Source of the DNA: Gammaproteobacteria bacterium
GTDB taxonomy: Bacteria; Pseudomonadota; Gammaproteobacteria; CAJXQU01
Direction: 5' to 3'
DNA length: 64,000 nt
Assembly: GCA_965238175.1 (NCBI GenBank)
Contig: CBDEGZ010000003.1
Coordinates: 3,232,001 to 3,296,000 of the forward strand
Shown: piece after piece, positions 689-33,501 of the stretch
Position numbering within the stretch: position 1 is the stretch's first letter
Layout: each line of letters opens with the position of its first letter
Position numbers and translations under genes: made by a program
The notes under the pieces: generated by a model
What the model was told of the DNA's origin: nothing
Database searches by the model: none
What the model saw: the letters and a program-made list of their open reading frames with translations, nothing else

Positions 689-2737
689 CTATACTCGGGC
701 AATCTCCACCAACACAGAATGCACAGTACTGCTTTCACCCATGTCAGATTTTATGCCTGGATTGAGAACATTAATATTCGCTTTGCTACCTTGCTGGCGC
801 TTCGGCCAAAATCCTTTGTAACTGAGTGCAACCCCACGTGGCACCTGATCAGAAACAGCCAGTTCTAAATTTATCTCGCCCGTGTCATTGTATAAACTGA
901 CTTGATCACCAATAAATAATTCTCTGTTGCTGGCTTCTTCGGGATGCAGGATCACTTTTGCTTTTCTCAATTGCTTTTCAATTTTCGGATCAATTCCGTA
1001 GCTGCTGTTCAGTAACCAAGCTGACGCAGGCGAAAGTAATTTGAGCTGACTTCCCAATGATTCAGGATCCAGATCGGCATGTGGTTCTGGGATCAAAGGG
1101 TGACCATCTTCCTCAGCCTGTTTTGAGGCAATTTCGATCTTTCCGCTTGGTGTCGGGAAATGACCATCAGTAAACTGTAGAACAGGATCTTTTGCGATAG
1201 GAACAGTGCCTTTTTCAGAAAGTGATTCAAATGTTTCTCCAACGCCGGATCCTTTGAGTACGCGATCAATAATCGCTCGATCAGATTCAAATAATTCAGC
1301 TTCAGTGAATCCCATCGCCTTAGCTAGACACCGAAAGATCTCGGAATTTTGTAATGACGCTCCCATCGGCTCAACGGCCTTAACTTGAGCGGACAAGCTT
1401 AAATTGAAATAGGACACGACTAAATCGTCATGTTCGAGAAAACTTGCTGCGGGCAAAATATAATCCGCATAATCTGCAGTATCAGTTGGAAAGATGTCTA
1501 GCACCACCGTCAATAAATCCTCGCGAGATAATGCTTCGCGTTGTCTTGTTTGTTGTGGGTTAGAAGCCAAACTATTCGCGTTCCAGCAAAAAAAGGCCTG
1601 GGAACGATCAGGATCTTCCAAACAATCGGCAAGATCCATATGACTGATACTTTCTGATCCTTCGCCCAAATGTGATCCTGACACATAATCTTCATCGATA
1701 TTGCGATTTCCAAAACCATTAAGATACAAAAAACCACTACCTGCTTTACCAAAATTTCCCGTCACGGCGGGTAATAAAGAACAGGCGCGCATCGCATTCC
1801 CTCCGCGATTTTGTCGTTGCAAACCCTGTCCGAGCCAAAGCATGGCCGACCCACTTCCATAAATCTTTGCGGCTTGTTCGATGAAGTGCGCAGGGACACC
1901 AGTTTTCTCTTCGGTCCAATCGGGCGTGCAAGACAATAACTTCTCTTCTAGCTGTTCCCAACCGATTGCATTATTAGCAAGATAGTCACGATCAATTTGT
2001 TCATCGCGAAGTAATACGTGCATTATTCCAAATGCTAATGCGGCGTCGCTGCCTGGATAATTCTGTAAATGCAGATCAGCAGCTTCAGCCGTTTCGGTAC
2101 GGATAGGATCTACGACCACAACTTTAGCAGATGACTCAGACAGCCAGTATTTATCAATGTGACTAGCCGAAGACGATGGGTTGGCTCCCCACACAAGAAT
2201 ACATTCAGCATCCTTCGCTGTGCGCGGATCAAAACCATCCAACGAACTACCGTAATTATAATCAAGTGCGGTATGACCTGCATTATTACAAACCGTATCA
2301 GGATTAACTTCGGTCGCGCCTAGTCGATTAAAGAAGCGCATAGGAAACAAAAAACCAAGTAACGCAAACGTACCCGTGTAATGGGTATTCAGTATTGTAC
2401 GCGCGCCTTTTTCCTGAATAATGTTTTGTAGCTTTTCAGCAATTTCAGATAAGGCTTGATCCCAACTTACAGGTTCAAAACGACCCTCACCCTTTCGTCC
2501 AGTCCGACGTAAAGGTTGGGTAATTCGTGAGTCTGGATCAAGCCAAGTATTGTTATAAGCAACAGCACATTTAGGACAAAGTTTACCGCGACTCACTGGG
2601 TGTTTTGGATCACCTCCTACTCTGAATATTTTATTATCTGCAATCGTGATGGCCATGCCGCAAGCATCGTAACAATCCCGTGGGCACGTTGTTAAAACCG
2701 TTCGTTTTTTACTAGTCGATGCTGCATTGGTTTCCAT
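689..2737 (-). CDS. Molybdopterin (DMSO reductase superfamily) oxidoreductase, cytoplasmic, substrate unknown
   Basis: N-terminal Fe-S motif CPRDCYDAC...LCPK, PLRR, VSWDQAL, WGANP, VVDP and TADYADYILPAA. No twin-arginine signal. GAGG SD before ATG 2737. Confidence 0.85.
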   Translation of the reverse strand: METNAASTSKKRTVLTTCPRDCYDACGMAITIADNKIFRVGGDPKHPVSRGKLCPKCAVAYNNTWLDPDSRITQPLRRTGRKGEGRFEPVSWDQALSEIAEKLQNIIQEKGARTILNTHYTGTFALLGFLFPMRFFNRLGATEVNPDTVCNNAGHTALDYNYGSSLDGFDPRTAKDAECILVWGANPSSSASHIDKYWLSESSAKVVVVDPIRTETAEAADLHLQNYPGSDAALAFGIMHVLLRDEQIDRDYLANNAIGWEQLEEKLLSCTPDWTEEKTGVPAHFIEQAAKIYGSGSAMLWLGQGLQRQNRGGNAMRACSLLPAVTGNFGKAGSGFLYLNGFGNRNIDEDYVSGSHLGEGSESISHMDLADCLEDPDRSQAFFCWNANSLASNPQQTRQREALSREDLLTVVLDIFPTDTADYADYILPAASFLEHDDLVVSYFNLSLSAQVKAVEPMGASLQNSEIFRCLAKAMGFTEAELFESDRAIIDRVLKGSGVGETFESLSEKGTVPIAKDPVLQFTDGHFPTPSGKIEIASKQAEEDGHPLIPEPHADLDPESLGSQLKLLSPASAWLLNSSYGIDPKIEKQLRKAKVILHPEEASNRELFIGDQVSLYNDTGEINLELAVSDQVPRGVALSYKGFWPKRQQGSKANINVLNPGIKSDMGESSTVHSVLVEIARV

Positions 2738-2933
2738 TACACACCTCAAACACAATTGCTATCATTCAAAAAATGAGCTGAAATTCTCTTTGATACTATC
2801 AAGGATAAATTGGATCAGTCTATTGCCCATCATGGGTAGCTCTGACAATTTTTGCTCGGACTGTAGTGTAAGTGTAACAACTGGACTGATCGTAGAACGG
2901 GACGTTAGTTAATTATCTTAAACCTGGTCTGGG

Positions 2934-3341
2934 TTAAGTAGAATGATAAACCTCACGCGCTGCCTTGAAATGTTCTAAGGAATAATCAGTCAGCCATTTG
3001 AGATCTAATGCTGGGCTCGCTTTGTCTTTCGCGTGATAGTAGGCTTCCATAAATTCTTCGTCGGGAGCATGTAACCATTCCTCTGTTTGAGTTTGGACTG
3101 ATAGTGAATCTTGTCGAAAGATTTCCTCAAAGACAGCATCAACAATGACGTCAAACGATTTTTCTTTTATGTTATAGCCAGTTGCATAACCTCGACAAAA
3201 ACCAAGAATAGAAGCGGTGATATATCGACTAGTTTGCATTTCAGACGGTACATTATCGTAAAGGCTTTTAAGTGGATCAAAACAATTTGAAAAAGCCTGC
3301 TTTAATTTTTTCTTGTGTTTCAAAACTTCCAAACCAAACAT
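2934..3341 (-). CDS. Hypothetical protein, paralog of 3372..3782
   Basis: Strong SD (AGGAGG). Aligns without gaps to its neighbour at about 50% identity by hand count. Confidence 0.85.
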   Translation of the reverse strand: MFGLEVLKHKKKLKQAFSNCFDPLKSLYDNVPSEMQTSRYITASILGFCRGYATGYNIKEKSFDVIVDAVFEEIFRQDSLSVQTQTEEWLHAPDEEFMEAYYHAKDKASPALDLKWLTDYSLEHFKAAREVYHST

Positions 3342-3371
3342 AGTTTATTTACCTCCTATGTGTTTCCCTAC

Positions 3372-3782
3372 TCATAACATTAAACCCGTCGCAGGTTTGA
3401 AGTTCGCCTTTAGGTATTCCGTTAACCAAGCAAGATCTACTGTCTCACTTTTCTGTGAACTCGCATGCTGATATGCCTTTAGAAATTCTTCATTGTTCTC
3501 GCTTTCCCAACTATCTGCACGGGTTTGAACAGCAACAGATTCTCGTCGGAACAATTCTTCGAACACCGCGTCTGCAATCACGTTGATGTCCTTTTGTTTA
3601 ATATTATGTGATGCGCTGTAAGTTCTACAGACACCTAAAATAGAAGCGGCAATTTGTGGGCTTGTTTGCATATCTAGTGGGACGTTTCCAAGCTCGTCTT
3701 TCAGCGGCTGAAAACAATCAGAGAACGCTCGTATTAATAATCTTTTATGTTTTCCAGCTCCAAACCCGAACATCTTTGCCAT
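3372..3782 (-). CDS. Hypothetical protein, paralog of 2934..3341
   Basis: GGAG SD before ATG. Shared blocks AFSxCFxPLK, NVPxxMQTS, ASILGxCR and DAVFEExFR. Confidence 0.85.
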   Translation of the reverse strand: MAKMFGFGAGKHKRLLIRAFSDCFQPLKDELGNVPLDMQTSPQIAASILGVCRTYSASHNIKQKDINVIADAVFEELFRRESVAVQTRADSWESENNEEFLKAYQHASSQKSETVDLAWLTEYLKANFKPATGLML

Positions 3783-9933: not shown

Positions 9934-10665
9934 CTAACGTACGTCTTTCCAGTATTCTTTTTTCAGCAAATAGGCGGGAACAAGCAATACTAATAGGAAT
10001 ATAATCACCCAGAAACCAATATCCTTTCTGATTAATTTTGCAGGCTCCCCCATGTAGACCATGAAATTAACCAAATCACGCCGTGCGGTTCTAAATTCAC
10101 TTTCACTCATCTTACCCGGCGTCATCAGTGCTAAATTATTAATCACCTTTGATGACTCATCGCCATGATGATCGTCATAAACTGGTTTTTGCATACCCTG
10201 TAATTCCAGTAAAACATGCGGCATCGCAGTATCTTTGAAAACCAGATTATTAACGCCTGTCTCTTTACCAGGATCAACATAATAAGAATCCAGGAAAGTA
10301 TAGATCCAGTTCGCGCCACGTGAACGGGCAATCACAGAAAGATCTGGCGGTGCTACACCTAGCCATTTCTTCGCATCATCAGCACGCACGGCAACCTTCA
10401 TGTTATTACCGATTTTATCGGTGGTAAACACCATGTTTTCGAGCATAACCTCTTCAGGTATACCCAAGTCTTTTGCCATGCCGTTAAAGCGCATGTAAGC
10501 CGCGGAATGGCAACTTAAGCAATAGTTAACGAATAGCTTCGCCCCCCGTTGCAATGATGCCCTGTCACTAAGATCTACACGTGCATCTTTAAGTCTAACA
10601 CCGGCACCAGCAGCAGAAGCCGCAATAGGGACAATCAATAAAAAAATCAGTATAAGTTTTTTCAT
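9934..10665 (-). CDS. petC: Cytochrome c1
   Basis: Signal peptide, CLSCH heme motif, PPDLS, MPHVL and C-terminal TM...EYWKD. Confidence 0.96.
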   Translation of the reverse strand: MKKLILIFLLIVPIAASAAGAGVRLKDARVDLSDRASLQRGAKLFVNYCLSCHSAAYMRFNGMAKDLGIPEEVMLENMVFTTDKIGNNMKVAVRADDAKKWLGVAPPDLSVIARSRGANWIYTFLDSYYVDPGKETGVNNLVFKDTAMPHVLLELQGMQKPVYDDHHGDESSKVINNLALMTPGKMSESEFRTARRDLVNFMVYMGEPAKLIRKDIGFWVIIFLLVLLVPAYLLKKEYWKDVR

Positions 10666-27591: not shown

Positions 27592-29712
27592 CTATTCGAT
27601 TATCGGACTGTCGGTTTTTGAAATGTTTTTTAGCCGTTCCAAAAGATCTAACCAATCTACTTCATGGTTAAATCCTTTGATGTTAAGCCAGGGAGGTAAA
27701 AAACCACGTTTAACAATATAGTAATAACCATTATCTGCTTTCTCGATACCATCCATATAACAAATGGAATCGACCAACTTGCAGCTCAATCCCAATTTCG
27801 AATAGGGAAAATCTTCAAAGATACCAAGCACACCTCTCGAAATGACATTAGCCTCACCGCCTCCGCCAATGCTGGTTAAGTTATCAATCGCACGTTGGCT
27901 GATCCGGTGGTGAGATTTATCATTCTCCGGCGTCCCAAAATAAGCGTCAAAGTTTACAGGTTGCCAGGTGTCAAGACGCATATCATGCATATAACCACTA
28001 AGCTTGCCGGTAATATCACCAAATTCAAACGTTTTGGTAAGAATTCCAAGGTCAAGATTTTCTACAGACAGATCTGCATACAACGTCGGAATAAGATCAA
28101 ATAAACCTTCTATTCTCAGCTTGCTTATTACAATATCTCCGTCAAAAACATTGATATGTAACTGACCCTCACTCGTCAAGTTTCCCTGATGAAATGATAC
28201 TCCCGGTATCTCACCAGAAATATCACCTGCCATAAGTGGCCAGCCTAAGCTCTCAGTAAATTCACTTAAGGTAATCGATGTCAGTTTGCTATTTATGTGG
28301 ACGGAATAATCAGCGAAACCCAGCTCCTTCATCTCAAGTTTATCCACATGAAGCGCGCCATCAAAAACTGGGATAACCATTTTCTCTCGAAGTGACATTG
28401 AGCGTCCTTTAGATGACAACTTCATTTCACTCGCGCCAATATTCATTTTATAAATTGATCCGCCTTGCCACTGCATTGCAGAACCTTTTACGTTTGGATC
28501 ACTATTCAAACGTATATCACCATCCAAACCGGCAACATGAAATCGACCTGCCTTATCTTCAACAAAAACATCTTCCATCATAAGATGAAAATCCGTAATA
28601 CCACTTGCGGACATAATTACTTTTAAATTAGTTTCACCAACAATCTCCAATTGATCGAGTCCACTCCCAAACAGTAAAGGTTGTAAATAAACAGGAAAGA
28701 CTGTTTGCAGATCCTGGGTATTCAATTCAAATGTGAGATCTTCTATAGATGATTCTTTAGGCGGTTCCTTTTTAGAATTAATAATGCCATTAGATTTAAT
28801 CGTCACGACATCGGGGTGATCAAATAACAAGTTATGAATTTTTATTTGATCATGCTGCCAGCTCCCATTTGATGACAAAGTAATTGGCTTCGACTCTGGG
28901 GAAAACAAAAATCCTGGTGAAACTTCACCAATGGTAAAACCGGGTTCTATATAAATGGCACCAGCGATCAATTCCAATATTTCTCTGAAGTGATACTCAG
29001 CACCTTTTTTTTCAACGAAAATGTCTAAACTCGCATCCAGTTCTTCAGCAACGGAGTTACCATCAAAACCAAGAGCAAAAGCTCGCAGGCTTATATTCGC
29101 GGAGCGGAGATTTGTATCCCACCCATTTGCGATCACGTTTAAATTTATGAGCCCTGTTTCATCAGATGTCACATCTGGCAAATCAACAAACGATGTGGCG
29201 ATCTGTTTTAAAGCCGCAACTCCGAGTGATTTTCCTTTAAGCGCAATTTCCCAACGTTTATCCTTCAACTTTAAATCAAGATCAAGGCGACCTTTTGCTA
29301 GCTGCAAATTTTTGATCGAGGCTTCAAGTTGATCATTTTCCTGATCAAATAAGAAATCAAGCTGCCCTTTTAACCTTCCAAGTTGTGCGTGCTTTACAGA
29401 AAGGTTTCCTGATAGACATTCTAGTTTTTTAAACTGCAGATAATATTGATGTGAAGAAACTGGACAGCTTATGGAAATTTGTTTGAGGTCGATCCCTGTA
29501 GCAGACTTTATTTGTTCTATCGAGATCATTAATTCCGGGATGCTTGTAGACGAACTTTCAGGAAAAATCTCAAACTGAAAACGAAGGTTATTAAGTTTCC
29601 AACCAGAAAACTCAGCCTCTTCAATTTCAAAATCAAAAAGATCAAATCCACTGGTTTTTGTAACTAGAACACTTGAAATCAGTAACAAAAAAATCAAGCA
29701 TATTTTTATCAT
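27592..29712 (-). CDS. YdbH/AsmA-like beta-rich periplasmic protein
   Basis: N-terminal signal anchor, alternating beta-strand pattern, and C-terminal block FGDITGKLSG...ISQRAIDNLTSIGGG...FPYSKLG...VDWLDLLERL. Confidence 0.6.
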   Translation of the reverse strand: MIKICLIFLLLISSVLVTKTSGFDLFDFEIEEAEFSGWKLNNLRFQFEIFPESSSTSIPELMISIEQIKSATGIDLKQISISCPVSSHQYYLQFKKLECLSGNLSVKHAQLGRLKGQLDFLFDQENDQLEASIKNLQLAKGRLDLDLKLKDKRWEIALKGKSLGVAALKQIATSFVDLPDVTSDETGLINLNVIANGWDTNLRSANISLRAFALGFDGNSVAEELDASLDIFVEKKGAEYHFREILELIAGAIYIEPGFTIGEVSPGFLFSPESKPITLSSNGSWQHDQIKIHNLLFDHPDVVTIKSNGIINSKKEPPKESSIEDLTFELNTQDLQTVFPVYLQPLLFGSGLDQLEIVGETNLKVIMSASGITDFHLMMEDVFVEDKAGRFHVAGLDGDIRLNSDPNVKGSAMQWQGGSIYKMNIGASEMKLSSKGRSMSLREKMVIPVFDGALHVDKLEMKELGFADYSVHINSKLTSITLSEFTESLGWPLMAGDISGEIPGVSFHQGNLTSEGQLHINVFDGDIVISKLRIEGLFDLIPTLYADLSVENLDLGILTKTFEFGDITGKLSGYMHDMRLDTWQPVNFDAYFGTPENDKSHHRISQRAIDNLTSIGGGGEANVISRGVLGIFEDFPYSKLGLSCKLVDSICYMDGIEKADNGYYYIVKRGFLPPWLNIKGFNHEVDWLDLLERLKNISKTDSPIIE

Positions 29713-29726
29713 CGATAATCCTTATC

Positions 29727-30644
29727 TCAACCAGGGAAAACTCCAGTGGAAATATATCGATCACCTCGATCACAAACAATAACCGCAATCACCGCATTCT
29801 CTACCTGCTCAGATAAACGCAAAGCAGCCGCAACAGCACCACCGGAAGACACACCACAAAATATCCCTTCCTGTGTACCTAACTGACGCATGGTTTCTTC
29901 TGCCGTTTTTTGATCCATATCGAGTACTTTATCAACACGAGTAGCATCGTATATCTTGGGTAAATATTCTTCAGGCCAACGACGTATTCCTGGAATACTC
30001 GCATCTCCTTCAGGCTGAACACCAATAATCTGAATTTCGGGGTTAACACTTTTCAAATATTTTGACGTTCCCATAATCGTGCCCGTTGTTCCCATCGAAC
30101 TCACAAAATGGGTCAGTTTGCCTTGCGTATCTCGCCACAATTCTGGCCCAGTGCCTTCAAAATGCGCACGCGGATTATCGGGATTAGAAAATTGATCAAG
30201 AACAATACCTTCTCCTTGAGCCTCCATCTGTCTTGAAAGATCAATCGCAGATTCCATACTACCTTCTGCAGGCGTAAGAATTATTTCTGCACCATAGGCT
30301 TTCATCGAGGCACGTCGTTCTTCACTCATATTATCCGGCATGATCAAGATCATACGATAACCTTTGATGGCTGCGGCCATCGCAAGAGCAATGCCCGTAT
30401 TACCACTTGTTGCTTCGATCAAGGTATCACCCGTTTTTATATCGCCGCGTTTTTCAGCATGAAGGATCATACTGAGCGCGGGCCGATCTTTTACTGACCC
30501 AGCGGGATTATCACCTTCCAACTTGACCAGGATTGTATTGCTCGGATGTCCTTGTTTTTTAGGTATCCGTTGTAAGCGTACTAGTGGCGTATTACCAACA
30601 AAATCTTCAATCGTCGGAAAATTATTTAAAAAGGTATTATCCAT
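29727..30644 (-). CDS. cysM: Cysteine synthase B
   Basis: VGNTPLVRLQR, KLEGDNPAGSVKDR, SSMGTTGT, IPGIRRWP and CDRGDRY. Confidence 0.96.
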   Translation of the reverse strand: MDNTFLNNFPTIEDFVGNTPLVRLQRIPKKQGHPSNTILVKLEGDNPAGSVKDRPALSMILHAEKRGDIKTGDTLIEATSGNTGIALAMAAAIKGYRMILIMPDNMSEERRASMKAYGAEIILTPAEGSMESAIDLSRQMEAQGEGIVLDQFSNPDNPRAHFEGTGPELWRDTQGKLTHFVSSMGTTGTIMGTSKYLKSVNPEIQIIGVQPEGDASIPGIRRWPEEYLPKIYDATRVDKVLDMDQKTAEETMRQLGTQEGIFCGVSSGGAVAAALRLSEQVENAVIAVIVCDRGDRYISTGVFPG

Positions 30645-30656
30645 ATAATGTATTAC

Positions 30657-31127
30657 TCATATAAATAATTCCTTCGCCATAATGATCGCATCTTCCCGAC
30701 CATCAATCGTCGGATAATAACCTTTGCGTAAACCCACTTCTGAAAAGCCTTCCTCTTCATACAAGTGATATGCAGCTACATTGCTCATTCGCACTTCCAG
30801 AAAAACAGTCGCAGCTTTTTGAATTCGCGAAATTTCTAGTAAGTGATTTAACAATATTCGTCCCAAACCATAACGACGATAATCTTTCCTTATACAAATA
30901 TTTAAGATATGCGCCTCACCAACTGCGGCCGTCATGACACCATAACCAACAATTCTCTGAGCATATTCAAGCACCCAACAGCCATAGCCAACTTTCAAAC
31001 AATCCTTATAAATGGTTTCTTTCCACGGAAATTCATAAGACACCATCTCAATCTCCATCACACTATCAATATCTTCTAATTGCATGGGTCGAATATCTGA
31101 TAAAACAAGATTGCTGGCGGTACTCAT
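30657..31127 (-). CDS. rimI: Ribosomal protein S18 N-acetyltransferase
   Basis: FPW, EAHILNI, FLEVRMSN, RKGYYP and REDAIIM. ATGA overlap with the upstream gene. Confidence 0.93.
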   Translation of the reverse strand: MSTASNLVLSDIRPMQLEDIDSVMEIEMVSYEFPWKETIYKDCLKVGYGCWVLEYAQRIVGYGVMTAAVGEAHILNICIRKDYRRYGLGRILLNHLLEISRIQKAATVFLEVRMSNVAAYHLYEEEGFSEVGLRKGYYPTIDGREDAIIMAKELFI

Positions 31128-31957
31128 ATTTCCCCCATCAGAGACTTTGCTAATAATAAATCTTCCCATGATTTATATTTTTGTGTTGGGGATCGCAATA
31201 AATAAGCCGGATGATAAGTGACGACGACGGGAATATTCTGCGGTTCATAAGTATAATTTTTACCACGCATTTTCCCAATTGGCGTATCTACTTTTAGTAA
31301 ATTTTGCGCTGCAATCCTCCCTACGCATAGAATAATTTTAGGTTTGATCAATTCAACCTGTCGTTGTAGGTAAGCAGAACAAGAAACCACTTCCTCTGAT
31401 CTTGGATCACGATTACCTGGCGGTCGACATTTAAGAATATTCGCAATAAATACCTGCTCACGAGATAAACCAATCGCCATTAACATCGAGTTTAAAAGTT
31501 GTCCTGCACGCCCAACAAAAGGTTCGCCTTGACGATCCTCCTCTGCACCAGGAGCTTCACCAATAATCAACCAATCGGCATTTTGATTTCCGACACCAAA
31601 AACAACTTGTGTTCGTGTTGTATGCAGATCACATTTAATACAACTAGCAACTCGGTTTTGGAGCACATCCCAAGTGTCATTGTTGATCTCTACAACATCC
31701 TGAGTTTCAAACCTTTGGACTTCAATATGATCTTCGTGAGACAAATTTTCATCACCCTCAATAGGTGATTTTTCAATCGCCATATTGCTTGATTGAATGT
31801 GGGTTGATTGTGTATGGGGCGCTTCAACAATTTGATCAATATCATTATCTTTTTCAACCGCAATCTGATTACTCACGTCAAACTTCTCAGCGTTCGTATC
31901 CCGCCTGACCCAAACGTCAATTCCCATGGCATTCAGGTAAGCGAGTTTTTGACTCAC
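31124..31957 (-). CDS. Family-4 uracil-DNA glycosylase with psi(HolD)-like N-terminal peptide and acidic linker
   Basis: [28 protein letters not shown] and [10 protein letters not shown]-terminus [18 protein letters not shown] overlap with leuA. Confidence 0.9.
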
Positions 31958-33501
31958 AGCTTGACCGCAACCTGCGGATGTTTTCTCCCTGTGACCGACA
32001 TAAGCGTATTCACGGCGTTCAAATATGCTTTAGCCGAAGCAGCGATAATATCGGTATCTGCCCCCTGACCATTTACAACACGATCTTCAAGTTGCAATCG
32101 AACAGCCACTTCACCTTGAGAAGACGTACCACTGGTAATATTACTCACGGAGTATAACAACAAGTCACTGCCACTTTTGACTATCGTTTCTATCGCCATA
32201 AAGGTCGCATCAACAGGTCCACTACCTGCCGCAGATCCGGTTTTTTCTTCCCCATCAACTGTCAAAGTGATTTCAGCAATCGGTGTTTCACCCATTTCAG
32301 AATTAACTTTTAATGCGATCAGTTTTACCCATTCATGATCGCTTGCAAGATTAGTCTCGGTCACTAACGCTTGCAGATCCTCATCGAAAATTTCGTGCTT
32401 CTTATCCGCAAGATTTTTAAATCGTTTAAAGGCATCATTCAGATCTTCCTCGCGTTCAAAACTAACACCTAATTCGTGTAAACGTGTTTTGAACGCATTT
32501 CTCCCGGAGTGTTTACCCATGACCATTCTATTAGCATTCCAGCCAACATCTTCCGCACGCATAATCTCGTAAGTTTCACGACTCTTGATCACGCCATCCT
32601 GGTGAATACCTGACTCATGTGCAAAAGCATTCGCACCAACGATTGCTTTATTCGGTTGCACTGGAAATCCCGTAACACTTGAGACTAAACGTGAGCAATT
32701 CATAATCTGCGTCGTATCGAGATCTGTATCACATGGAAAAATATCCTGACGCGTTTTGATCGCCATAACGATTTCTTCCAGTGATGCATTTCCAGCACGC
32801 TCACCTAAACCATTGATCGTACATTCCACCTGGCGGGCACCGTTCAAAACAGCAGATAATGAATTACCTACCGCAAGACCTAAGTCATTATGACAATGTA
32901 CGGAAAATACTGCTTTATCGCTGTTTGGGATCCTTTCGATCAATTCACCAATTAATGCACCAAATCGATCGGGCAAATTATAGCCAACCGTATCTGGAAT
33001 ATTGATTGTTGTTGCACCTGCATCAATAACGGCTTCGATAATACGACAAAGAAAATTGGTTTCTGATCGACCAGCATCCTCAGGTGAAAACTCAACATTT
33101 TCTGTCAAATTTCTTGCTCTTTTGACTGCCCGAATTGCTTGCTCAACAACTTGATCAGGCTCCATTTGCAATTTCGCTTTCATGTGAATTGGCGAGGTTG
33201 CTATGAAGGTATGGATCCGCGATGAGATCGCTGGCTTTAATGCTTCACCTGCACGATCAATATCTTTGTCCAATGCCCTAGCCAAGCCACAAACTGTACT
33301 GTCTTTAACTGCCTCAGCGACCGCCTTTACAGATTCAAAATCTCCAGGACTAGCAATAGGAAATCCTGCTTCAATGACATCTACCTTCATACGTTCCAGC
33401 GCCTTAGCAATACGCAGTTTTTCACCTTTCGTCATCGAGGCGCCTGGACTCTGTTCACCATCACGCAAGGTTGTGTCGAAAATAATTAATTTATCAGTCA
33501 T
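31954..33501 (-). CDS. leuA: 2-isopropylmalate synthase
   Basis: [45 protein letters not shown] and C-terminal regulatory domain GSGPVDA. Confidence 0.97.

Follow-up and report, generated by a model that had tools for sequence, protein, structure and literature searches.

A family-4 uracil-DNA glycosylase upstream of rimI with homology to the psi subunit of the DNA polymerase III clamp loader

In a window of 64,000 nucleotides of gammaproteobacterial DNA, by which we mean the whole stretch that was analysed, the gene directly upstream of rimI was found to encode a homologue of HolD (psi) that carries a uracil-DNA glycosylase (UDG). The protein, called psi-UDG here, consisted of three parts: a conserved N-terminal peptide, an acidic linker that was predicted to be disordered, and an intact family-4 UDG domain. 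Its homology to HolD extended over the entire protein, and it held the slot of HolD upstream of rimI, replacing HolD in genomes without HolD. These results suggested that psi-UDG may be the psi-equivalent subunit of the Pol III clamp loader and at the same time a still working family-4 UDG, and we give this reading a probability of roughly 0.65. Such a protein would bind DnaX, bind chi and excise uracil. To call it a psi homologue or orthologue that probably works like psi is our own reading. The initial annotation had already proposed a bifunctional psi-UDG, and this was supported by the peptide profile, the lack of a canonical holD, the presence of holC, the slot upstream of rimI and the homology to HolD.

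Gene organisation and the three parts of the protein

The positions of the gene, its parts and its neighbours are given in Table 1. GTG at 31957 was the sole start codon upstream of the N-terminal motif in the open frame. At the other end, the stop codon overlapped the rimI start in an ATGA at 31124-31127, as the initial annotation had claimed. The identity of rimI was supported by TIGR01575 with 131.9 bits. The same order of leuA, psi and rimI was also observed in two loci of other genomes, L159 and L162.

Table 1. Positions in the window of psi-UDG, its parts and the adjacent genes
Feature	Position	Strand	Remarks
psi-UDG CDS, whole	31124..31957	-	277 aa, GTG start, TGA stop
psi-type N-terminal peptide, aa 1-20	31898..31957	-	putative DnaX-collar docking element; predicted helix aa 2-10
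Linker, aa 21-95	31673..31897	-	acidic, little conserved, predicted disordered
Family-4 UDG domain, aa 96-277	31127..31672	-	four Fe-S cysteines, GEAPG, HPAY
Helix, aa 150-162	31472..31510	-	first predicted chi-contact segment; among the segments aligning with HolD
C-terminal helix, aa 254-277	31127..31198	-	second predicted chi-contact segment; best kept in HolD and degenerate forms
rimI	30657..31127	-	ATGA overlap with psi-UDG stop
leuA (2-isopropylmalate synthase)	31954..33501	-	stop overlaps psi-UDG GTG start (GTGA)

The N-terminal peptide was compared with a HolD-peptide HMM made from 15 Pfam-defined HolD N-termini. The psi-UDG ORF scored 24.4 bits (E 2.5e-5) and ranked first of the 30,735 stop-to-stop ORFs of the genome, with the runner-up at E 0.059. 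The psi-like N-terminus seen in the initial annotation was thus the single clear match of the genome. Among 28 homologues, W16 was invariant and L8, G12 and R19 were at least 90% conserved. The motif stayed constant while the linker spanned 32 to 122 aa in these aligned homologues, and it was found together with the UDG motifs in one ORF in 96 of 110 loci (regex, two samplings). This meant that the motif was not due to chance. When a psi-UDG peptide profile of 96 peptides was searched against 177,635 distinct PDB sequences, the top match was the collar-bound psi peptide 3gli_O, in which psi residues 8-23 aligned with the peptide; the match was weak (E 0.16) and tied with unrelated nucleoside 2-deoxyribosyltransferases (E 0.19-0.2). 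A phmmer search of PDB with the 30-aa N-terminus returned no psi chain and only mite allergens at E >1. Judged by its sequence, the N-terminus can be assigned as a putative clamp-loader (DnaX collar) binding peptide of psi.

The linker was strongly acidic. Its 76 residues (20-95) contained 19 D/E (25%) against 4 K/R, and the pLDDT was <50 over residues 22-81. This agreed well with the stretch of about 75 acidic low-complexity residues that had been described before.

The UDG domain was clearly recognised by the curated models. PF03167 matched aa 120-267 with E 3.8e-40 and 137.7 bits against a cut-off of 24.3, and UDG_fam4 (TIGR00758), whose cut-off is 125.3, gave 231.1 bits. The score for the UdgX family (TIGR03914) was 157.7 bits, which was under the cut-off of 189.95. 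In a phmmer search, aa 95-260 matched the UDG of Thermus (chain 1ui0_A, E 1.6e-45), and structure comparison with 1l9g_A gave Z 19.5. C106, C109, C177 and C193, which we take to be the 4Fe-4S cluster ligands, were invariant in 28 homologues, and so were G133-E-A-P-G137, H249-P-A-Y252, the GEPFVGRAG loop and N173. Motif A of family-4 UDGs is GE[AGS]PG and motif B is HP[AS], and both GEAPG and HPAY aligned with 1ui0_A. The family-4 UDG domain was therefore as intact as had been noted in the initial annotation. With every catalytic feature of the family in place, the enzyme looks active, and it would be expected to excise uracil. Two more UDG-superfamily genes were present in the same genome, so that replication-coupled excision need not be the unique role of psi-UDG.

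Homology to HolD, distribution and possible origin of psi

Profiles of 20 HolD sequences and 28 psi-UDGs were compared using hhalign. They aligned end to end over 156 columns with a probability of 99.7% (E 1.6e-25). When the peptide and one UDG-like HolD, that of locus L017, were left out, the probability was 98.7% (E 1.6e-16), and it was 97.8% (E 9.1e-13) when three other UDG-like HolDs were left out as well. Controls with chi or with a reversed alignment gave 0.1-0.3%. Homology between psi-UDG and HolD over the whole length was established by this computation. In addition, the resemblance of the psi fold to the UDG fold, which had been stated in the initial annotation, was observed directly. 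E. coli psi (3sxu_B) superposed on the UDG domain with an rmsd of 3.2 Å over 101 of 102 residues and ranked 16th of 48,161 chains; its Z of 6.2 is middling, with unrelated Rossmann-like chains reaching 5-6.

The homology was visible only with the HolD family profile. When the single sequence of E. coli psi was used, only residues 1-23 could be aligned with the psi-UDG alignment (E 0.023, probability 2%). PF03603 gave no match to the psi-UDG protein in Pfam at E<=10, and no NCBIfam model for psi matched it at E<=1. In the same way, hmmsearch with the psi-UDG profile against PDB returned no psi chain at E<=10; apart from UDG-superfamily chains it found one DNA polymerase from a phage and two matches due to chance. 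psi-UDG is outside the psi family as the databases define it, because the curated models PF03603 and TIGR00664 miss it.

Distribution was investigated in 400 scored genomes of Gammaproteobacteria (in the GTDB sense), and the kinship of these genomes inflates all co-occurrence counts below. PF03603 was found in 20 genomes, the psi-UDG profile in 310 and chi in 333. The psi-UDG match was strong in 294 genomes, about three quarters of the sample. Among the matches listed, 137 of 150 began at profile position 9 or before, so the peptide was included. Fifteen of the 20 HolD genomes had no psi-UDG match, and in four the match was the HolD ORF itself. In the remaining one, a separate UDG4 was matched from profile position 55. 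A separate peptide-bearing UDG was thus not demonstrated in any of the 20 HolD genomes of this sample. The next gene downstream was rimI in each of 30 psi-UDG loci and in 15 of the 20 loci with HolD. The same was true in E. coli K-12, where holD had been expected directly upstream of rimI. psi-UDG therefore holds the slot of HolD and replaces it in genomes without HolD. Chi was present in 276 of the 294 strong-match genomes, compared to 12 of the 20 HolD genomes. It was not detected in the other 18 strong-match genomes, several of them incomplete, which meant that chi either is not an obligate partner or was missed.

In the genome of the window, a separate holD and a holC were looked for, as the initial annotation had suggested. 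No canonical holD was found in a genome-wide PF03603 scan, whereas holC (chi) was present with E 1.4e-40. The best PF03603 match (E 0.09) had four stops inside and was rejected as noise. In the source databases, the homologues had no names other than 'uracil-DNA glycosylase' or 'DNA polymerase', and it had been rightly foreseen that pipelines would name the protein just as a UDG. The architecture was not special to this genome and was the usual state in the sampled class. Listed carriers included Thiothrix eikelboomii, Thiocystis violacea and a Methylococcus MAG.

Several proteins stood between the two families. The protein of locus L017 passed the Pfam HolD model with 22.6 bits, yet it scored 85 bits on TIGR00758. 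Three degenerate forms (L075-L077) with rimI downstream retained the peptide, HPAY or HPAW and the C-terminal helix, and were without the cysteines and GEAPG. A search with these three forms returned a 'hypothetical protein' of Granulosicoccaceae and then active UDGs, and no protein named psi by any source database. Long proteins of about 260 aa with an N-terminal AYL.AMQV..WLPR were also found upstream of rimI in loci L159 and L160, which represent two genomes of one sampled family. With the HolD profile these two matched at 94-95%, but with that of psi-UDG the E was only 1.4e-3; with the long protein of L162 included, the ranges were 94-97% and E 1.4e-3 to 0.1. Unlike psi-UDG, the long proteins of L159 and L160 had no recognisable catalytic motifs. 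In another locus (L161), a 479-aa ORF upstream of rimI showed a psi-like C-terminal motif and no N-terminal motif by regex. A lead from the ESM Atlas (0.76) to a 139-aa cluster was left unused.

The end-to-end profile homology and the intermediate forms gave direct support to the earlier idea that psi-UDG represents the ancestral state of psi. The proposed direction from UDG to HolD is based on parsimony and on the intermediate forms. The sequences suggest that E. coli psi may be a catalytically dead descendant of a psi-UDG-like enzyme. In the wider sense, we lean slightly towards the view that psi began as a family-4 UDG, that most sampled gammaproteobacterial clamp loaders still carry an active UDG as psi, and that HolD and the pseudomonad psi are dead-enzyme relics.

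Predicted chi contact, proposed role and alternative explanations

The complex of psi-UDG with chi was modelled. The ipSAE was 0.89 in three runs, and the best of 3 controls was 0.02. Of 80 solved complexes, 58 reached the ipSAE mark, and so did 2 of 110 mismatched pairs. At least 97% of contacts were common to the runs, with a partner pLDDT of at least 92. The modelled contacts involved chi residues 49-64, which hold eight of the columns invariant in 21 chi sequences, and the two helices common to HolD and the UDG. Chi is thus predicted to bind helix 150-162 and the C-terminal helix of the UDG domain. Since the E. coli chi:psi complex is already solved (3sxu), the pass of the model may reflect this likeness and not an independent prediction.

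We propose the following role. The helix-forming N-terminal peptide would insert into the collar that domain III of three DnaX subunits forms, like the E. coli psi peptide, and the acidic linker would act as a flexible tether. The UDG domain would use helix 150-162 and its C-terminal helix to bind chi (HolC), whose own partner would be the SSB tail. In this way the glycosylase would be held at the fork, on or near SSB-coated and newly primed DNA, and uracil excision could be coupled to replication. Descendants of such an enzyme would be E. coli-type HolD and the long psi proteins like those of pseudomonads, in which the catalytic motifs and the Fe-S cluster were lost while the peptide, the fold and the helices that bind chi were retained. 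What is gained by tethering a UDG at the fork is not self-evident, since uracil excision from a single-stranded template would leave abasic sites there.

An unlikely alternative is that psi-UDG is an ordinary repair UDG with a borrowed psi-like peptide for transient recruitment, in which case it would be neither a stable subunit nor a bridge to chi, and the true psi would be absent or some other protein that has escaped recognition. It would fit with the failure of every psi family model to match psi-UDG, with the 18 strong-match genomes without detectable chi, and with a chi model that may be a memory of the solved chi:psi complex. In addition, psi is hard to recognise, and that of P. aeruginosa was reported in 2022 as not findable by homology search (PMC8879598). 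However, no other ORF of the genome carried the peptide, the next best standing at E 0.059, and a peptide-bearing UDG separate from HolD was not demonstrated in any of the 20 genomes with HolD. The gene also lay in the same slot upstream of rimI, the segments common with HolD were exactly those predicted to touch chi, and chi was found more often with strong psi-UDG matches (276 of 294 genomes) than with HolD (12 of 20). Convergence or chance, with the N-terminal motif serving another partner or protein maturation, is very improbable. The motif is short, and its match to 3gli_O (E 0.16) tied with the deoxyribosyltransferases (E 0.19-0.2), but the globular domains were homologous at 97.8-98.7% without the peptide. 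Gene position and the mutual exclusion of HolD and psi-UDG also agreed with the psi reading, and the solved UDG4 chains of Thermus, Thermotoga and Sulfolobus begin at the catalytic domain and so have no such extension.

It is also possible, though we consider it quite unlikely, that psi-UDG serves as psi with a UDG domain that has lost uracil excision and is kept for structure alone, as a pseudo-enzyme or a UdgX-like module that binds DNA or uracil. The descendant forms did lose catalysis and keep the psi features, TIGR03914 gave a match too (157.7 bits, under the cut-off of 189.95), and P. aeruginosa psi has been reported to bind ssDNA (PMC8879598). Against this, the Fe-S cysteines, GEAPG, the GEPFVGRAG loop, N173 and HPAY were invariant in 28 homologues whose linkers had diverged freely. 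The match to 1ui0_A (E 1.6e-45) and a score far over the UDG_fam4 cut-off also argued for a working enzyme.

Implications and comparison with known systems

Until now, psi has been regarded as a small structural adaptor with a narrow distribution. If psi-UDG is a psi subunit that still excises uracil, psi gains an evolutionary origin, replication-coupled uracil excision becomes a built-in activity of the replisome, and the psi that was 'missing' in most Gammaproteobacteria with chi is identified. Thousands of entries named 'uracil-DNA glycosylase' or 'phage-type DNA polymerase' upstream of rimI would then gain a second role. Chi has been described as spread over more bacteria than psi (2012 review, PMC3290774), and an origin of psi from a UDG would explain why chi is far more widespread than recognisable psi. 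In literature searches that covered titles and, for the listed rows of most searches, the starts of abstracts, with most subscription journals outside their scope, no listed paper linked psi to a UDG. The word 'glycosylase' was absent from the available text of the 2022 Pseudomonas psi paper (PMC8879598), and its one mention in a 2024 E. coli review was unrelated to psi. The reading opens to experiment the co-purification of psi-UDG with the clamp loader, the effect of tethering on the C-to-T spectrum, and the handling of abasic sites at the fork.

Compared with HolD (PF03603, TIGR00664; E. coli b4372; 3sxu_B, 3gli_O), psi-UDG has the N-terminal L-x-x-[ML]-G-I-x-x-W-x-x-R peptide, the alpha/beta fold, the LL..mL.AiGL helix and the C-terminal P..K[RK]..W.dL helix in common. 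However, HolD in the 20 loci had 127-199 aa with a short or absent linker, against 277 aa for psi-UDG of the window, and it lacked the Fe-S cysteines, GEAPG and the catalytic His motif. P. aeruginosa HolD (PA4679), which was compared by its reported length of 278 aa (PMC8879598), is nearly equal in size to psi-UDG.

Family-4 UDGs of known structure (Thermus thermophilus 1ui0; Thermotoga maritima 1l9g/1vk2; 4zbx) have the catalytic domain, the 4Fe-4S ligands and the motifs in common with psi-UDG. We take the source organism of 4zbx to be Sulfolobus. Unlike psi-UDG, these enzymes have neither the psi peptide nor the linker, and their residue 2-6 aligned with residue 94-95 of psi-UDG. We know of no link of these enzymes to chi or rimI.

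UDGs tethered to the replisome are found in other systems. Archaeal family-4 UDG associates with PCNA, and a Deinococcus UDG with the SSB C-terminus (3ufm) was among the structural matches. Human UNG2 is reported to be recruited to PCNA and RPA (PMC8053108). UNG2, the archaeal enzyme and bacterial Ung with the SSB tail follow the same logic as psi-UDG, in which a glycosylase is recruited to replication proteins. In those cases a short clamp- or SSB-binding motif is located on a free enzyme, whereas psi-UDG appears to be an integral clamp-loader subunit that would reach SSB via chi. If this is true, a bacterial replisome would have a resident base-excision enzyme, in parallel to eukaryotic UNG2 with PCNA and RPA.

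Architecture and neighbourhood of the psi-UDG gene

The gene in the window was found to encode a psi-type N-terminal peptide, an acidic linker and a family-4 UDG domain. This protein and its homologues are referred to as psi-UDG. The initial annotation had described the reading frame, its N-terminus, the acidic linker, the UDG motifs and the overlap with rimI, and it was correct throughout. The 5' neighbour was leuA, coding for a 515-aa protein with HMGL-like and LeuA_dimer domains in Pfam. Its stop was overlapped by the psi-UDG start as GTGA, and the psi-UDG stop overlapped the ATG of rimI (131.9 bits to the rimI model TIGR01575) as ATGA at 31124-31127. Therefore, the three genes were packed for co-translation. 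On the 3' side of rimI, a 305-aa PLP-dependent enzyme with a cysteine-synthase-like look was encoded at 29727-30644 (-) (PF00291, E 9.5e-73), followed by a 706-aa ORF at 27592-29712 (-).

Features of the psi-UDG gene and its protein
Feature	Position	Strand	Description
psi-UDG ORF	31124-31957	-	277 codons; GTG start at 31957, TGA stop
psi-type N-terminal peptide	residues 1-20		
Linker	residues 20-95		acidic, 19 D/E vs 4 K/R; predicted disordered
Family-4 UDG domain	residues 96-277		Pfam, NCBIfam, PDB sequence and structure matches

The UDG domain matched PF03167 (E 3.8e-40), the UDG_fam4 model TIGR00758 (231 bits, cut-off 125) and the Thermus UDG 1ui0_A (E 1.6e-45), and its structure superposed on the T. 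maritima UDG 1l9g_A with Z 19.5. Across 28 aligned homologues, the four cysteines, GEAPG, the GEPFVGRAG loop and HPAYLLR were invariant. In the N-terminal peptide, W16 was invariant, and L8, G12 and R19 were each at least 90% conserved. The linker varied from 32 to 122 residues and was net acidic in all 28 homologues; in the structure prediction, pLDDT was below 50 over residues 22-81. This conservation pattern is that of a predicted docking peptide on a flexible tether joined to a predicted working enzyme. In addition, the same genome (G000) carried two UDG-superfamily genes outside the window, at G000:C3:1790154-1790612 (-) and C3:31115-31588 (+), with 90.4 and 66.6 bits to PF03167. Psi-UDG is thus not the sole uracil glycosylase there, and given these two genes it may be specialised for replication-associated uracil.

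Relationship to the clamp-loader subunit psi

A 17-column HMM was built from the HolD N-termini of 15 of the 20 PF03603-positive genomes, with no psi-UDG sequence included, and was run on the full set of 30,735 stop-to-stop ORFs (40 aa or longer) from the own genome. The window ORF was the one clear match (24.4 bits, E 2.5e-5), and the next best had E 0.059. This ranking bore out the proposed psi-like N-terminus. The canonical HolD peptides YLQQMGIPVWLPR, YLRMMGIQQWVRR and YLNAMDIPVWQLR carried the same word as the psi-UDG peptide. In the reverse test, a profile from 96 psi-UDG peptides was searched against the PDB. The best match was residues 8-23 (LQQLGITQWSLRRPGA) of 3GLI chain O, DNA polymerase III subunit psi, which was weak (E 0.16, tied with an unrelated family) and served as corroboration only.

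Homology extended over the whole length. Profile-profile comparison (hhalign) of 20 HolDs with the 28 psi-UDGs gave 99.7% with E 1.6e-25, and the 156 aligned columns ran from end to end. Without the peptide and without L017, the most UDG-like HolD locus, the result was 98.7% (E 1.6e-16), and leaving out three further UDG-like HolDs gave 97.8% (E 9.1e-13). Controls with chi or a reversed alignment gave 0.1-0.3%. The common segments were the helix LL..mL.AiGL (psi-UDG residues 153-164) and the C-terminal P..K[RK]..W.dL helix. By profile-profile comparison, the whole of psi-UDG is related to psi. Less sensitive methods missed the relationship: psi family models of Pfam and NCBIfam did not match psi-UDG, no psi chain was found in the PDB by hmmsearch with the psi-UDG profile or by phmmer, and E. 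coli psi as a single sequence aligned over residues 1-23 only (E 0.023). In the structure search, E. coli psi (3sxu_B) ranked 16 of 48,161 representative chains, mostly behind UDG-superfamily members. It superposed on the UDG domain with Z 6.2, which is middling alone, at an rmsd of 3.2 A with 101 of 102 psi residues aligned, in agreement with the suggested resemblance of the psi and UDG folds.

A complex of the own-genome chi (HolC) and the UDG domain (residues 85-277) was modelled; each partner was supplied with an alignment, that for chi being made of chi sequences from 20 psi-UDG genomes. All three runs gave a complex score (ipSAE) of 0.89, compared with at most 0.02 in three controls. The mark for this score is attained by 58 of 80 solved complexes, compared with 2 of 110 mismatched pairs. 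Contacts agreed by at least 97% between runs, with partner pLDDT of at least 92. On the chi side they involved residues 49-64, a stretch with eight of the alignment's invariant columns, and on the UDG side residues 150-162 and 254-277, including both segments common to HolD. Because the E. coli chi:psi complex is already solved, the pass may reflect that structure, and it indicates likeness rather than binding.

Genomic distribution and proposed function

The own genome contained holC (E 1.4e-40), and a search of it for HolD found none, as asked by the initial annotation. Its placement of the gene in the holD slot also held: all 30 psi-UDG loci and 15 of 20 HolD loci had rimI directly 3', and holD overlaps rimI in E. 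coli K-12. There (L167, 4608646-4609323), the gene that comes next after holD-rimI is yjjG, which carries a pyrimidine 5'-nucleotidase annotation; such a further pyrimidine-related function beside the psi slot may be coincidence.

Among the 400 scored genomes of the class, 20 had HolD (PF03603), 310 matched the psi-UDG profile, 294 of them strongly, and 333 had chi; these and all co-occurrence counts come from related, non-independent genomes. The unpublished genomes G039, G141, G296 and G308 enter the tallies and one locus (L040) only and carry no claim. Among the psi-UDG matches listed, 137 of 150 began at profile position 9 or earlier and therefore contain the peptide. Fifteen HolD genomes had no psi-UDG match, in four the match was the HolD gene itself, and one (G227) had a separate UDG4 matching from profile position 55 with about 40 residues of open frame upstream. 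A second, peptide-bearing UDG was thus demonstrated in none of the 20. Chi accompanied 276 of 294 strong psi-UDG matches, with no chi detected in the other 18, and 12 of 20 HolD genomes. The eight HolD genomes without chi at E<=1e-3 were mostly of 1.5-2.1 Mb, and chi there is either lost or too divergent for detection.

Two reviews (PMC3290774, PMC11253446) state that the psi N-terminus binds each of the three DnaX subunits at domain III. The psi-UDG peptide would likewise dock in the DnaX collar, and the acidic linker would supply reach. The UDG domain would hold chi, which would hold the SSB tail, and the glycosylase would thereby be stationed at the fork. In source databases, the names given to the homologues are limited to 'uracil-DNA glycosylase' and 'DNA polymerase', much as had been expected of annotation pipelines. 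No link between psi and a UDG was found in the full-text literature searched, which included look-ups in PMC3290774, PMC11253446 and PMC8879598 and had most subscription journals outside its reach.

Degenerate forms and the proposed origin of psi

A series of forms (INTERMEDIATES) comprised the loci L017, L075-L077 and L159, L160 and L162. From the sequences, it reads as a succession of active psi-UDG, then long forms that are catalytically dead, and finally short HolD. The catalytic apparatus of an Fe-S enzyme is far easier to lose than to gain. Therefore, psi-UDG reads as the ancestral state of psi, as had been proposed.

L017 (G216:C91, about 10071-10613, -) encoded 186 aa (IMIIGEALDEQGEP..GLLLNNMLAAIG ... 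IPFIVTYDTAYLLRTPKDKRKAFEDLL). Its score of 22.6 bits to Pfam HolD exceeded the cut-off, and it gave 85 bits to TIGR00758 and 123 bits to the psi-UDG profile. No rimI was found at this locus, which by its sequence appears to be a half-degenerate psi-UDG. L075, L076 and L077 (G073, G064, G194) were 228-295 aa stop to stop with rimI downstream. They started with the psi peptide (YL.AMGI..WQ) and kept HPAY/HPAW and the C-terminal helix, without the Fe-S cysteines and GEAPG. The Pfam HolD model missed them, and their nearest named relative was a 'hypothetical protein' of Granulosicoccaceae. A 346-aa ORF at L073 (G191:C25), also with rimI downstream, had a degenerate UDG-like C-terminal half (psi-UDG profile E 2e-16) and LRELLRELL repeats near the start, partly masked by N bases.

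At L161 (G016:C22, ORF 1958-3395, -), rimI was preceded by a high-GC ORF of 479 aa that had a psi-like end (...AAAKRAFWPQLRALRK), and a regex for the N-terminal psi peptide found none in it. Five of the 39 chi-positive genomes without a HolD or psi-UDG match were examined. Three of the five genomes (G228, G378, G008) had a long protein of about 215-265 aa upstream of rimI (L159, L160, L162), preceded in L159 and L162 by leuA as in the window. The N-termini were AYL.AMQV..WLPR in L159 and L160 and LLALGLPVYSRR in L162. The three matched the HolD profile at 94-97% and the psi-UDG profile barely. According to PMC8879598, P. aeruginosa psi has 278 aa and is undetectable by homology search. The three long proteins are similar to it in size and may represent cryptic psi subunits of the pseudomonad type.
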